From positions 13,950-77,949 of the forward strand of contig JAJTED010000003.1 of NCBI GenBank assembly GCA_021300535.1: a stretch of 64,000 bases of DNA, in the 5' to 3' direction. Under the pieces are notes generated by a model. The model did not search any database. It was not told the DNA's origin and saw only the letters and a program-made list of their open reading frames with translations. This DNA comes from Planctomycetaceae bacterium (lineage in GTDB: Bacteria > Planctomycetota > Planctomycetia > Pirellulales > UBA1268). The translations under genes were made by a program, and so were the position numbers. Positions 6,156 to 37,948 of this stretch are shown one piece after another (position 1 is the first letter of the stretch; the number at the start of each line of letters is the position of its first letter).

Positions 6156-6210
6156 GCGTCGCAGAATCTGACGGAGCGGGAACTTCGCACGGAGCCGCAG
6201 GCGGTCGCAC
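6156..6210. repeat. Core-less cassette end (type A arm pair plus phased CGCA boxes)
   Basis: gcgtcgca-gaat-ctgacgga then CGCA at 6186/6196/6206; similar to 27475-27530. Confidence 0.7.
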
Positions 6211-6259
6211 GCTGGTGGCGGTGGCATGAGTTCATCATCTGATCACCAAGGAAACTACC

Positions 6260-6535
6260 GTGATCGCGTTCCGAGTACTCGCTGAACTCACGGAACGGCT
6301 TTCGGTGGCCTAGGGGGACGGGCTGCACGCGGTGGTGCTCTTCGGTTCCAATGCCCGTGGGAGTTCAAGGCCGGAAAGCGCCATCGACGTCCTGGCCGTT
6401 CTCGAGACCCTGGCCGGCGACTACGGCGACGAACTGGAGCGGGGGCTGACGGCGGTCTATCCGGTCGCCCTGCGGCTCGGTCGCCGCGTGAGCGTGAAAC
6501 CCCTGGCACGCGACGAGGATGACAGGACGCTTTGA
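6260..6535 (+). pseudogene. MNT antitoxin pseudogene
   Basis: Paralog of 27579-27896 with an in-frame TAG at 6311, the DID motif changed to AID, and a truncated end. Confidence 0.85.
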
Positions 6536-6621
6536 GCGAGTGCGACGCGGTATCGTCGGGGCGATGATCCGGGGAGCGTCCTGTGACTTGACGCGAGCCG
6601 TTGCGGCACCCTGCGGAAAAA

Positions 6622-6740
6622 ATCTCCGCGTAAGATTTGTAACCTCCCCGTTTTTCTTCGGGGAACCAATGGGGTTGGCGAGAAAGCGACTCAGAAAAGA
6701 CTCACCTTCCAATCCGCAGGAGGACGCATGAGTTCGCACG
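6622..6740. mobile_element. Degenerate att junction (tRNA-Asn 3' core plus type B arms)
   Basis: atctccgcgtaagatttgtaac matches ctccccgagtaggattcgtaac at 17/22; arm gcgactca at +64; phased TGCG/CGCA boxes on both sides. Confidence 0.75.
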
Positions 6741-6751
6741 GGTCGCCCTCA

Positions 6752-6888
6752 CAGTGCTCGTTGGCGAGCCGGAAGCAGAACTGCGTGAATCAGTCGGGTT
6801 CGATGGAAGAGAGCGGTCGCGAGCGGAGGACCTCATCGATGATCACCTCGAACTCATCAAACAAAAATGGGCTGAGCACCTTGGCTGG
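6752..6888 (+). pseudogene. DUF4160 remnant
   Basis: Matches the 3' half of 26705-26938 with deletions. Confidence 0.75.
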
Positions 6889-7108
6889 CCGTGCCCCGAA
6901 GGCATGGCATGAGCAAGAAATGATCTTTGTCAGATTCGCGAGCGGCCATGAGGCGGGTTTTTCCACCAAGGGTAACCCGCGGCTGGAATCCGCTACCGAG
7001 GAAGATGTGGGCCGTATCGAAATCTCTCCGTTCGGGCTGCACTGGCCGACGCGCGATGAAGACCTTTCGTTTGCGGGAATCCTCGAGGAGCGTTACGGTC
7101 AACGGTGA
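6881..7108 (+). CDS. DUF2442 family protein (putative antitoxin)
   Basis: TTG start; GLHWPTRDEDLSFAGIL; same length as and near-identical to 26931-27158. Confidence 0.75.
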   Translation: MAGRAPKAWHEQEMIFVRFASGHEAGFSTKGNPRLESATEEDVGRIEISPFGLHWPTRDEDLSFAGILEERYGQR

Positions 7109-35468: not shown

Positions 35469-36343
35469 TCGCCTCCCTCCTGGCGACCATCGACGCCGTT
35501 GCGGTCACGACTCCCCCCACGTGGGCAGCGGCGGCGTCGGTGGCGGCCGGTGGCATCGTCGGCCTGTCGCTCGGCCTCACCGGCGGCGGCGGCGCGATCT
35601 TCGCCGTGCCGCTGCTCGTCTACTGGATCGGCGTCGATCCGCGGACGGCCGTGAGCATCTCGCTCGTCACGGTGGCGGCGACGGCGCTCTTCGGTGCAGT
35701 CGAGCGGTGGTGGTATGGCCAGGTCGAAGTTCGCACGGGGCTGCTCTTCGCGGCGGCTGGGATGCTGACCGCTCCGGCCGGCAGCTGGCTCGGCGGGCAC
35801 GTGCCGCCGCAGACACTCATGGCCGCGTTTGCGGGACTCATGCTGCTGATCGCCGCCAGGATGTGGCGCAAGGCGGCGGATCGCACCGAGAGGGCGGCGG
35901 CCGGGGTGTTTGCCACGGGGGTCGGCCCGACCTGCAGTCGCGATGCCGAGGGCCGGCTGCGGATGACCACGCGCTGCTTCGTGCTCCTCACGCTCGTCGG
36001 GCTCTTGGTCGGGCTGCTCTCCGGCCTGTTCGGTGTCGGGGGCGGGTTCCTGATCGTGCCGGCGCTCGTCGCCTTCGCCACGATGGACGTGTTTCGCGCG
36101 GTCGGCACGTCGCTCTTCGTGATGACGCTCGTGGGCGCCGCGGCCGTAGCCGCCCAGGTTGCCGCCGGTCGCAGCATTCCGCTCGACATCGCCGGCAGCT
36201 TCGTGGGGGGCGGTGTCCCCGCCCTGTTCGTCGGCTCGTGGATCGGCCGCAAGATCGGCGGCCCGACGCTCGCCCGTGTGTTCGCCGTGGCGATCGTCAT
36301 CGTCGCGGCCTTCATCATCTTCAAGACGTTCCTTCGCTTCTGA
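35465..36343 (+). CDS. TauE/SafE sulfite exporter
   Basis: GLTGGGGAIFAVP, GLFGVGGGFLIVP, AVGTSL. Confidence 0.88.
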   Translation: MIASLLATIDAVAVTTPPTWAAAASVAAGGIVGLSLGLTGGGGAIFAVPLLVYWIGVDPRTAVSISLVTVAATALFGAVERWWYGQVEVRTGLLFAAAGMLTAPAGSWLGGHVPPQTLMAAFAGLMLLIAARMWRKAADRTERAAAGVFATGVGPTCSRDAEGRLRMTTRCFVLLTLVGLLVGLLSGLFGVGGGFLIVPALVAFATMDVFRAVGTSLFVMTLVGAAAVAAQVAAGRSIPLDIAGSFVGGGVPALFVGSWIGRKIGGPTLARVFAVAIVIVAAFIIFKTFLRF

Positions 36344-36372
36344 TCGCCTCGTATCCCCAGGAGAGAACACTG

Positions 36373-36948
36373 ATGAGTTCTTTGCATCGCCGCCTCCCAT
36401 TCGTACTCCTCGCCGTCGTCTATGCCTCGCTCGTCACGTCTTTGTCTCCAGCGGCGGAACCGGGCGCCGGGCTGCCGTCCCTCCAGTTTCCGCAGATCGA
36501 AAAGTATGGTTCGGTCGTCGCGCTGCCGGACGCCGGCGAGCGGATCCGAAGTGGAGGAAAGATCTACTTCGACACAACGGCGGCGGCACCGGCCGGCAAA
36601 CCGAATCGGGGGCTTGAGAGTGCAGCCCGCCTGGTCAACCTCCATGCCCTCCAGGGCCTGTCGGGCCCACGGCCCCAGATTGCCGTGATTCTCCATTTCA
36701 ACGCGACCGTGGCGGCGCTCAAGGACGAAGCCCATGAGAAGTCCCCAGCCGGCGGCTCCAATCCGAACCGCGAACTGGTCGAAAAACTGGTTGCCAATGG
36801 CGTGGAAGTGTGGGTGTGCGGCCAGTCTGTCATTCGTGGCGGCAATCCGCTGTCGGACGTGCTGCCCGGCATCCGCATCGCGCAGTCCGCCATGACGTTC
36901 AACATCAACCGCCCCGCCGACGGCTGGACCGCGATCGGCGTCTACTGA
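36373..36948 (+). CDS. Secreted DsrE-family protein
   Basis: Signal peptide, ARLVNLH, NPNRELV, VWVCGQS. Confidence 0.8.
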   Translation: MSSLHRRLPFVLLAVVYASLVTSLSPAAEPGAGLPSLQFPQIEKYGSVVALPDAGERIRSGGKIYFDTTAAAPAGKPNRGLESAARLVNLHALQGLSGPRPQIAVILHFNATVAALKDEAHEKSPAGGSNPNRELVEKLVANGVEVWVCGQSVIRGGNPLSDVLPGIRIAQSAMTFNINRPADGWTAIGVY

Positions 36949-36959
36949 CCGGAAGCCAC

Positions 36960-37763
36960 ATGCCGACAAGCCGAGGGCTGCGACACGCGATCGTGCTGGC
37001 AACGCTGATTGCCGGATCGCCGGCCCGCGGTCAGGAGCTTCAGGAGCTCGATACCGACCGCGATGCATTCACCCCCGCCACACGGCCTGTGGCGGTGGGC
37101 CACGTGCTCACGGAGGCCTCCTACTCGTTCATCGACAACCGCGGCACACCGGCCACGAACAGCTTTCCGGAACTGCTCATTCGCCGCGGGGCCACCGAGC
37201 GTTTCGAGTGGCGGCTCGGTTTCAATTACGAATCGGGCTCGGGAGGCAGTGTCGTGACGGCCGTCGAGGGGGGCGAGGGCGTCGAGGGAGACGAACTCGC
37301 CTCGGAGTCGAACATCCTCTACGGCTTCAAGGCGCTGGTGACTGAGCAGGGCGGTTGGGCGCCGCGATCGAGCGTGATCGTCGAGGCGTTCACGCCGCTC
37401 TCGGGTGATGTGTGGGGCACGGAGCCGGCGATCACCTATGCGTTCGGCTGGGAGTTGCCGCGCACATGGCGGCTGGACGCCGCGATCCGCTACGTGCTTG
37501 CCGACAGCGCGGAGGGGCTCTTCGACAAGTGGTTGCCCTCGGCCGTGCTCCGCATGCCGGTCACCGAACGCTGGGAGGTTCACGCCGAGTGGTTCGGCAG
37601 TTGGACCGACGGCCTCGAGGACGAGAAAGTACGGCCCTTCGTGGGCCCCGGCACGCACTTCATGATCACGCCCAGCCTCGAGATCGGCTGCCGCATGGGC
37701 TGGGGCCTCACTCAGGATGCGGCGGCGTACTTCGTGGACTCTGGCCTCGGGTGGCGGTTCTGA
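36960..37763 (+). CDS. Putative outer-membrane beta-barrel/transporter
   Basis: Signal peptide, LDTDRDAFTP, C-terminal GLGWRF. Confidence 0.7.
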   Translation: MPTSRGLRHAIVLATLIAGSPARGQELQELDTDRDAFTPATRPVAVGHVLTEASYSFIDNRGTPATNSFPELLIRRGATERFEWRLGFNYESGSGGSVVTAVEGGEGVEGDELASESNILYGFKALVTEQGGWAPRSSVIVEAFTPLSGDVWGTEPAITYAFGWELPRTWRLDAAIRYVLADSAEGLFDKWLPSAVLRMPVTERWEVHAEWFGSWTDGLEDEKVRPFVGPGTHFMITPSLEIGCRMGWGLTQDAAAYFVDSGLGWRF

Positions 37764-37876
37764 AGTTCGCCGCACCCCTGCATGGATGCGACGCAATCCG
37801 TGCGGCCGTGCCCGCACGACTCCCGGTTGGCGTGGAGCCCCAGACGCCGCACTGGACTCGACAGTTGGCCGGCAAA

Positions 37877-37948
37877 CTCCCCGAGTAGGATTCGAACCTA
37901 CAACCTACCGGTTAACAGCCGGCCGCTCTACCGTTGAGCTATCGGGGA
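37877..37948 (-). tRNA. tRNA-Asn (GTT)
   Basis: TCCCCGA/TCGGGGA acceptor stem, D-arm AGCTCAACGGTAGAGC, anticodon loop CTGTTAA, T-arm GTAGGTTCGAATCCTAC; CCA not encoded. Confidence 0.97.

Follow-up and report, generated by a model that had tools for sequence, protein, structure and literature searches.

The window analysed here, a 64,000-nt stretch of the genome of a Planctomycetaceae bacterium (GenBank assembly GCA_021300535.1, contig JAJTED010000003.1, positions 13,950 to 77,949 of the forward strand), contains an array of repeat-bounded gene units that ends at a tRNA-Asn gene. This tRNA has the anticodon GUU and is a single gene, identified by ARAGORN and by an Rfam tRNA match of 73.6 bits; at E<=0.1 the Rfam models found only the tRNA in positions 1-42000, plus a sub-threshold chance match at the same place. 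The 3'-terminal 14-18 nt of the gene (37877-37894 on the plus strand) serve as the att core and also anchor the array. The 14-mer CTCCCCGAGTAGGA occurs exactly on the plus strand at eight positions (13100, 14032, 17516, 22697, 26465, 27410, 28332 and 37877), all in one orientation, and a ninth match, with 2 mismatches, lies at 57784. Nine matches were reached by 0 of 100 dinucleotide-preserving shuffles, in which the mean was 0.38. Identity between core and tRNA extends over 14-18 bp, varying by copy. Across the assembly (4.0 Mb in 197 contigs), exact copies of the 14-mer are confined to the array contig, and the locus is the sole strong match in the genome to a profile of the ~200-nt junction that surrounds each core.

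The core positions and their common orientation had been proposed in a first-pass annotation made from the sequence alone, and all were recovered exactly; its core-to-core spacings (932, 3484, 5181, 3768, 945, 922 and 9545 bp) were likewise reproduced. A degenerate copy that it placed at 6622, which is 6478 bp before the core at 13100, has 4 mismatches in the 14-mer, yet gives a full-length profile match and is genuine. The same profile finds further decayed or partial copies (Table 1), so that at least four decayed copies lie to the left of the exact cores and the array starts directly past a glycosyltransferase gene. The units listed in the first-pass annotation therefore stand, but its total was too low: with the decayed copies the array comprises about 12 units. 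Decay is graded along it. Cores are perfect from 13100 rightwards, whereas mutated or missing cores and pseudogenes characterize the left-hand units.

The intact units, designated A to G from the tRNA outwards, are 922-9545 bp long and co-oriented, carry unrelated cargo with nearly all genes on the plus strand, and keep direct repeats of the tRNA-Asn 3' end at both ends (attL and attR). Three of them hold only a predicted type II toxin-antitoxin (TA) pair, as had been proposed, with Pfam assigning an MNT nucleotidyltransferase and a HEPN protein to units B and G and the pair DUF4160 and DUF2442 to unit C. The paired genes overlap by 4 nt in both NTP_transf_2 and HEPN pairs and by 50 nt in the DUF4160 and DUF2442 pair, and these TA-only units contain no trace of lost genes. 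The DUF4160/DUF2442 domain pair appears, in the pertinent part of PMC8198452, as the dhiTA toxin-antitoxin system of Dickeya dadantii. No intact integration or transfer gene was found in the units by Pfam scans of open reading frames (ORFs) picked per unit and by a PF00589 scan of the genome.

Table 1. Features of the tRNA-Asn array, from left to right in window coordinates.
Feature	Coordinates	Strand	Basis or remark
Glycosyltransferase gene, chromosomal flank	4554-6101		
Partial right arm, leftmost trace of the array	6154-6223	+	profile
Decayed older units	6250-12170	+	
MNT pseudogene with stops	6250-6549		
Decayed junction, arms still recognisable	6565-6765 (core 6622-6635)	+	nhmmer 152.6 bits, alignment
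DUF2442 ORF	6728-7108		91% to unit C
Decayed junction without recognisable core	7408-7579	+	nhmmer 43.7 bits; repeat family D15
HNOB-Ser/Thr kinase	7843-9321		
HEPN remnant	9689-9958		
Partial right arm, GACGTA class, before DMFA2_C gene	9996-10058	+	repeat family D9, profile
DMFA2_C protein	10443-12170		
Tyrosine integrase remnant, last ~36 codons, HY(L)Q catalytic-tyrosine motif	12398-12505	+	inside ORF 12176-12538
DUF167 gene	12628-13002	-	Pfam
Distal left-arm site cluster, 3 x CGACTCA	12938-12975		
Decayed or partial junction copy	12950-13008		profile
Junction, class GACTCA x2	13040-13247 (core 13100-13113)	+	
Unit G (932 bp): MNT; HEPN	13100-14045: 13252-13596; 13593-13976	+	Pfam; sole cargo
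Junction, class GACTTA/GACTCA	13973-14180 (core 14032-14045)	+	
Unit F (14139-17428): short ORF	14139-14351	+	DNA resembles start of DUF4160/DUF2442 units
Unit F: 943-aa protein with 69-nt internal repeats	14597-17428	+	no family match
Junction, class GACGTA x2	17465-17665 (core 17516-17529)	+	
Unit E (17977-21932): histidine kinase	17977-19095	+	Pfam
Unit E: LytTR response regulator	19092-19871	+	Pfam
Unit E: PATR/PEP-CTERM protein	20022-21932	-	Pfam
Junction, right arm GACGCG/GACGCA class	22636-22834 (core 22697-22710)	+	
Unit D (cargo 22865-26413): MNT fragment	22865-23149	+	Pfam
Unit D: HxlR	23052-23438	+	Pfam
Unit D: two DUF1254/DUF1214 proteins	23469-25028; 24995-26413	+	Pfam
Junction, unit D left arm, unit C right arm (GACTCA x2)	26412-26612 (core 26465-26478)	+	
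Unit C (945 bp): DUF4160; DUF2442	26465-27423: 26702-26938; 26889-27158	+	Pfam; sole cargo
Junction, unit C left arm, unit B right arm (GACGCA x2)	27352-27548 (core 27410-27423)	+	
Unit B (922 bp): MNT nucleotidyltransferase; HEPN	27410-28345: 27579-27896; 27893-28276	+	Pfam; sole cargo
Junction, unit B left arm, unit A right arm (GACGTA x2)	28273-28470 (core 28332-28345)	+	
Unit A (9.5 kb, core 28332 to core 37877): sulfur-handling cluster	28359-37763	+	Pfam
Unit A: cytochrome-c-like ORF	28359-30044		below Pfam cut-off
Unit A: Pyr_redox_2	31235-32422	-	
Unit A: ArsR HTH	32525-32959		
Unit A: rhodanese	33062-34021		
Unit A: MBL + rhodanese	34065-35468		
Unit A: TauE	35465-36343		
Unit A: MetA-pathway-like	36810-37763		
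tRNA-Asn(GUU)	37877-37948	-	ARAGORN; Rfam

That the array is a misassembly of dispersed repeats, a possibility raised at the outset, was contradicted by contigs from four public runs (X1, X6, X9 and X11, of which X1 may be the source sample) aligned to positions 12500-30500. All seven internal cores in this interval are bridged with 0 other letters by run contigs, from up to four runs. Within X1, record 1 crosses the core at 13100, record 2 that at 17516, record 6 those at 22697 and 26465, record 7 that at 27410 and record 8 that at 28332; the core at 14032 is bridged by record 18 of X6 and record 11 of X11. An origin of the array, or of the units shared between genomes, in misassembly or binning of dispersed repeats would be favoured by the fact that all the genomes are metagenome bins, and that contigs of relatives often stop 0.3-6 kb from tRNA-Asn. 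In light of the bridging contigs, the restriction of the core to this locus in the genome, and the recurrence of the same architecture in 28 independently assembled genomes, such an artefact is extremely improbable.

Alignment and profile searches place each core copy within a junction made up of a left arm, the core and a right arm. The left arm, of 55-250 nt, is part of the left-hand unit and in several copies carries TGCG repeats at a spacing of ~10 nt. The right arm, of ~140 nt, is part of the right-hand unit; it also contains CGCA repeats and reaches the ribosome site and start codon of the first gene. From the window and 30 relatives, 98 copies of the core were extracted, counting those within tRNA genes; a hexamer pair lies ~52 nt beyond the core in 57 of them, and in 49 of these pairs the two hexamers are identical (GACGCA in 21, GACTCA in 18, GACGTA in 10). 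The spacer co-varies with hexamer class. One arm class can precede differing cargo, and one cargo family can follow differing classes; because arm class and cargo family mix in this way, the motifs belong to the site and not to a single operon. The left arm of an element that has kept its integrase (in the relative with genome G023) contains three more copies of CGACTCA, at a distance of ~165 nt from the core, and the window counterpart, behind an integrase remnant, likewise has three in its left arm. A short core with repeats in the arms on either side is how a lambda-type attP is laid out. The evidence thus supports the proposal, made in the first-pass annotation, that the junctions are lambda-type att sites with core and arms in place of attC hairpins, and the hexamers are putative arm-type sites for integrase binding.

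The distinction from attC was examined by folding five junctions as single-stranded DNA, three of them on both strands. The eight folds gave z scores of -1.14 to +1.54 against 200 shuffles each, with none below -1.2. Because the single strands fold no better than shuffles, the junctions are not attC sites, and the attC hairpin was rejected as a description of them. This bears on the idea that the array is a true integron, or a cluster of attC sites lacking an integrase (CALIN), whose units are moved by the genome's own integron integrase. Such an enzyme is indeed encoded (contig C75:14620-15669, locus L033:5621-6670; 448 bits to TIGR02249 against a cut-off of 265), and the units are sub-kb, co-oriented and rich in TA pairs. 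The integrase gene lies, however, on another contig with its own ~85-nt repeats downstream, of which copies at 90-94% identity are present on contigs C110, C7 and C46, and which are candidate attC sites. Moreover, the core of the array is a tRNA 3' end, its arm repeats are direct and not inverted, and the recombinase linked to tRNA-Asn in relatives is a different tyrosine integrase, which scores 19 bits to the integron model. Of the explanations considered, an integron proper is the least probable. In many members of the genus, integron integrase homologues are situated 0.3-1 kb from contig ends; in genome G074 one contig holds both the homologue and the tRNA-Asn array, 23 kb apart.

The array is a feature of the genus. 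The tRNA-side flank, with genes for an anti-sigma kinase, a STAS protein and GroEL, is syntenic in relatives, and the 16-mer core, allowing up to 1 mismatch, is found in 58 of 67 genus genomes, where a reversed-pattern control gave 0-3 matches per genome. At least two cores share a contig in 28 of the 67, typically 0.7-1.0 kb apart. The junction is present also in one genome of a second genus of the same family, and a BLAST search of limited sensitivity with one junction gave no match in the sampled genomes of other families of the order. From 31 sequences, 65 core-to-core units were cut, 44 of them shorter than 1.5 kb; all but one of these 44 match a reference two-gene toxin-antitoxin-like module. 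The modules represented are VapB-like + PIN (13 units), MNT + HEPN (10, plus 1 partial), DUF4160 + DUF2442 (5, plus 4 distant or partial), HicAB-like (6), an unnamed pair with no Pfam match (3) and Gp49 + HTH (1), the PIN and HicA matches falling below Pfam cut-offs. Lengths are uniform within the MNT/HEPN family, with nine of the ten complete units measuring 921-936 bp. Median ratios of nonsynonymous to synonymous substitution (dN/dS) are 0.11 for MNT, 0.08 for HEPN and 0.14 for PIN, at a median dS of 0.65-1.0; the toxin-antitoxin genes of the small units are under purifying selection.

The tyrosine integrase expected at such a site is intact in two relatives. In G050 (a 554-codon ORF) and G023 (384 codons) it lies at the end of its element next to the att site, adjoins tRNA-Asn and reads towards it; both proteins have SAM-like and catalytic tyrosine-recombinase domains and they are 40% identical to each other. 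The G050 element is 19.8 kb long and includes a type I restriction system, an AAA/VWA pair and a serine resolvase, and just upstream of its integrase is an HTH_17 gene that, from family and position, is a putative excisionase. The integrase family is tRNA-directed across the Planctomycetota. Of 79 integrase loci (71 of them with at least 300 nt downstream), 58 have an opposite-strand tRNA no more than 1.5 kb from the stop codon, and these tRNAs have 12 different amino-acid specificities. Across loci L057-L135 the integrase always converges on the tRNA, usually at a distance of 100-250 nt, with at least 12 tRNA species targeted, and five loci contain very small integrase-bearing islands delimited by a further copy of the tRNA 3' 14-mer, 5-6.6 kb off. 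Across the 79 loci of other planctomycetes, where the flanks reach only 6 kb, a second copy accompanies 5 of 66 minus-strand tRNA genes and no sub-kb arrays are seen.

Relatives of the integrase at E<=1e-8 occur in 43 of the 67 genus genomes, and beyond G050 and G023 the core-bearing contigs show only integrase fragments (G006, G010, G057 and the window). The first-pass annotation had described the window's units as devoid of an intact recombinase, and no PF00589 match exists anywhere on the 79-kb array contig; its label 'integrase-less' is nevertheless an overstatement, since the annotation overlooked the C-terminal remnant to the left of the core at 13100. This remnant is identical to the G023 integrase at 23 of 39 residues (E 6e-13; tblastn, BLASTP), and the order remnant, DUF167 gene, left arm, core is the layout downstream of the intact G023 gene. 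This region is 82.7% identical over 555 nt to the G023 locus (L016:8428-8980). One window unit is a decayed integrase-bearing element. Elsewhere in the window genome, PF00589 genes comprise two Xer-like proteins, the integron integrase, one gene adjoining tRNA-Arg, and fragments. A same-family C-terminal integrase fragment on contig C125 (16328-16666) has 2 in-frame TGA codons and a faint arm-like match beside it, and may be the scar of another integration site.

Comparison of genomes bore out the view that the units are exchangeable modules. Over 959 nt, unit C of the window and the unit nearest the tRNA in G074 share 99.4% identity, although the chromosomal flanks of these genomes agree at only 74-85%. 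In an alignment taken with 400-nt flanks and read in 50-column bins, identity is 32-48% up to the left core, 90-100% within the unit and 28-54% past the right core, and at both ends the switch occurs inside the 16-bp core. Unit A is 94-95% identical, core to core, to an internal unit of G044. Four pairs in all (window/G074, window/G044, G050/G015 and G050/G023, the last three at 94-97%) are 94-99% identical with no detectable similarity in the 800 nt on either side; in a fifth, G055/G054, the units are 93% identical and the chromosomal flank 76%. In addition, unit D matches part of a G023 unit at 90-93% identity, the match ending at a core, and unit F is 89% identical to G044.

Unit order also differs between genomes. 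Counted from the tRNA, the G044 counterpart of unit A is the third unit, and the counterpart of unit F immediately precedes it, whereas in the window units E, D, C and B stand between F and A; beyond F, on the side away from A, G044 has a D-like segment. The order is thus F, E, D, C, B, A, tRNA in the window and D-like...F', A', x, y, tRNA in G044. In G021 a DUF4160/DUF2442 unit, an MNT/HEPN unit and the tRNA correspond to C and B of the window, which adds unit A on the tRNA side. This order, together with perfect cores near the tRNA and decayed cores far from it, fits entry of new units at the tRNA-proximal core.

Exchange of this kind might instead reflect RecA-dependent homologous recombination or gene conversion after DNA uptake, with the ~200-nt junctions supplying homology. 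Junction repeats that are 60-90% alike flank every unit, and there is no active integrase in the two genomes that share the 99.4% unit. A 16-bp core is, however, too short for RecA, and the sequences outside the window/G074 pair are unrelated right up to that core on both sides, as they are in the three further pairs. Because the breakpoints share only the core, it was concluded that site-specific and not homologous recombination explains the exchange; the RecA-dependent route is very improbable.

A different alternative holds that the array is only a graveyard, in which autonomous islands have decayed in place, TA units persist as deletion-resistant residues, and nothing lacking an integrase moves. 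The integrase remnant, the progressive decay of units away from the tRNA, and the failure to see circles in the run contigs all suit this idea, and two larger units start with TA-gene fragments (22865-23149 and 14139-14351) as if neighbours had been fused by deletion. It is nevertheless unlikely. Against it stands a sub-kb unit shared at 99.4%, with core breakpoints and at another rank in the array, by species whose flanks have diverged to 74-85%. Also against it are the uniform lengths seen among the MNT/HEPN units, genes that are intact at a dS of 0.65-1.0 with a dN/dS of ~0.1, and, in the small units, right arms that are 72-77% identical when shuffled arms give 59%.

The locus is probably a tandem-accretion array of att-bounded elements at the tRNA-Asn 3' end, built by the tRNA-directed tyrosine integrases of planctomycetes. 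On the best reading most units are integrase-less and resemble cis-mobilizable elements (CIMEs), the smallest consisting of att arms and a toxin-antitoxin pair. The array would grow by integration of integrase-bearing islands at the tRNA-Asn core, with new elements entering at a core, most simply that of the tRNA, and the oldest units, furthest away, decaying. Any two cores could recombine, such that a unit or a block of units would leave as a circle and re-enter at a core. Minimal units would be excised and integrated core to core by the integrase and excisionase of a full-length element, either co-resident in the array or passing through. Units without an integrase would then rely on a neighbour or a visitor, whether through CIME-style cis-mobilisation by accretion or through true action in trans, the route that the first-pass annotation proposed for single units and that we infer for unit movement. 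The TA genes may penalise loss both of their own unit and of array segments containing it.

Several observations weigh against this account. The integrase N-terminus (~95 residues) has no arm-binding Pfam domain, scans at E<=5 yielding nothing usable, and the hexamers are accordingly no more than candidate arm sites. A TAGAAT motif in the right arm reads as a -10-like promoter element, and the same arm contains the ribosome site of the first gene, so that conservation of this arm may be partly regulatory. TA-only units have short left arms (55 nt in B and G) from which the distal hexamer cluster is missing, and may for this reason be poorer substrates. The window genome, 86% complete, has only two fragments of the cognate integrase (the window remnant and that on C125), and G074, 95% complete, has 0 matches at E<=1e-8. 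Neither of the genomes sharing the 99.4% unit thus has an intact cognate integrase, and the enzyme of the latest moves was either lost, departed with its element, or resides in unassembled DNA. No core-to-core joint of an excision circle or an empty site was found in the contigs of the four runs, which drop rare forms. In the G050 element, scanning of 10 ORFs gave neither a relaxase nor a transfer gene that would account for passage from cell to cell. Finally, as the relatives are all metagenome bins, some of their contigs may be chimeric at repeats.

The general process has precedents: tandem islands at tRNA or tmRNA genes with integrase-less passengers are known. The passages on accretion in a review of integrative mobilizable elements (IMEs) describe tandem arrays that include integrase-less CIMEs, and att-bounded streptococcal elements of the ICESt1/ICESt3 type, without an integrase, that were shown to move with a functional neighbour (PMC5704250). 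For Dehalococcoides, the corresponding sections of PMC3146451 report that ssrA is followed by more than 12 direct repeats and that an integration module is missing from 15 islands; such members are interpreted as CIMEs, and movement with a functional neighbour is proposed for them. To the extent that these sources describe them, such arrays share with the window a duplicated tRNA or tmRNA 3' end and tandem islands, some of which lack an integrase and keep both att sites. They differ in that here many units are smaller than 1 kb with only a TA pair, the small units constitute diverged families under purifying selection genus-wide, no conjugation or mobilisation genes are seen even in the integrase-bearing G050 element, and the recombinase is a tyrosine integrase as opposed to the serine recombinase of Dehalococcoides.

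Further resemblances are to lambda- and P4-type tRNA islands, in which the core is likewise a tRNA 3' end flanked by repeated short motifs in both arms, and an integrase at the element end converges on the tRNA with a putative excisionase (HTH_17) beside it, as in the relatives. Unlike in those islands, the window integrase is cut to ~36 codons and most units never show one. The dif (pdif) modules of Acinetobacter plasmids, in the accounts drawn on here, are also small, often TA-only and site-bounded, with a recombinase elsewhere, and they shuffle between replicons; they use 28-bp XerC/XerD sites on plasmids and the host Xer proteins, whereas the present junctions are ~200 nt, at a chromosomal tRNA, and tied to an island integrase. 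The first-pass annotation recognised no described system of this kind. Accretion arrays with CIMEs and pdif TA modules show that view to have been too sweeping, but sub-kb, TA-only, att-bounded units anchored at a tRNA were not found in print: full-text literature searches returned no tRNA-anchored chromosomal array dominated by sub-kb TA pairs with lambda-type att boundaries.

Toxin-antitoxin modules are known as integron cassettes, and integron arrays resemble the present one in their ordered, short, co-oriented, site-bounded modules of unrelated cargo with many TA pairs, in a recombinase outside the cassette, and in an order that differs between relatives. Here, by contrast, there is no adjacent intI or attI; the sites are double-stranded and lambda-type, with a tRNA 3' end as core plus arms, and each unit seems to bring its own 5' region (TAGAAT motif and ribosome site). 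The array is integron-like in outcome but lacks both defining features, an adjacent intI and attC sites. A stronger proposition, which is possible but against which we lean slightly, is that it embodies a second, integron-like route: a tRNA platform with lambda-type att sites in place of attC, on which sub-kb, mostly TA cassettes of at least five families would be moved singly in trans, the three arm classes corresponding to three integrase specificities, and the whole persisting throughout a planctomycete family in which a classical integron also occurs.

Here the passenger is pared down as far as it can logically go, to an addiction module between two att arms, and this minimal TA unit is the commonest one in an array that extends across the genus and into a second genus of the family (at least one genome). 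If single units do move in trans, the array would be a gene-capture system that has converged on the integron with double-strand, lambda-type sites, and would offer a natural test of whether TA pairs persist by selfishly stabilising arrays that are prone to recombination. The hexamers, in three co-varying classes, provide a handle on the arm-site specificity of unstudied integrases found phylum-wide in Planctomycetota, and the presence of the array and a genuine integron integrase in one genome permits a direct contrast. The arrays also explain the frequent assembly breaks within a few kb of tRNA-Asn.

Possible carriers and population variants were considered as well. The 16-mer core matched 12 viral contigs, at tRNA-Asn genes or as short matches, and one 4.5-kb contig ends in a left arm and core; the cognate integrase is encoded by none of the 12. 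A distant-mode search of a plasmid collection with units C and B gave no match, and a phage or plasmid carrier was thus not found in either source. Public runs that contain the locus come from lake and freshwater habitats. Joints listed from the run contigs were rejected as excision products, having sides of 20-26 letters or foreign letters between them. In X6 the summed contig depth over 27.5-30.5 kb is 5-8 times that over 13-27 kb, and a contig of depth 213 starts at 27406 behind 12 foreign letters, a hint of a more abundant strain in which units B and A have another neighbour in front of them and the break falls at the core. In X1 and X9 a contig crosses the core at 13100 and from 13184 on has 255 letters unlike the window, with variants at 13145 and 13147 at about half depth; it may represent an alternative right-hand neighbour of that core in the population.

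Some cargo is related to sequences elsewhere in the genome. The protein of unit F has its 69-nt tandem repeats at 16759-17165, and its repeat domain recurs in proteins on at least eight other contigs (C182, C138, C125, C39 and C129 among them). A dispersed repeat of ~230 nt, for which Rfam gave no match, is found at 10177-10396 and 17668-17908, directly after GACGTA-class arms and just upstream of the DMFA2_C and histidine-kinase genes; with 70-80% copies on more than 12 other contigs, it could be a leader, a promoter module or a small mobile element. In unit A the segment 32621-35463 (ArsR, rhodanese and MBL-rhodanese) has an 81%-identical paralogous copy on contig C29, and the island has brought a second copy of a resident sulfur-handling cluster.

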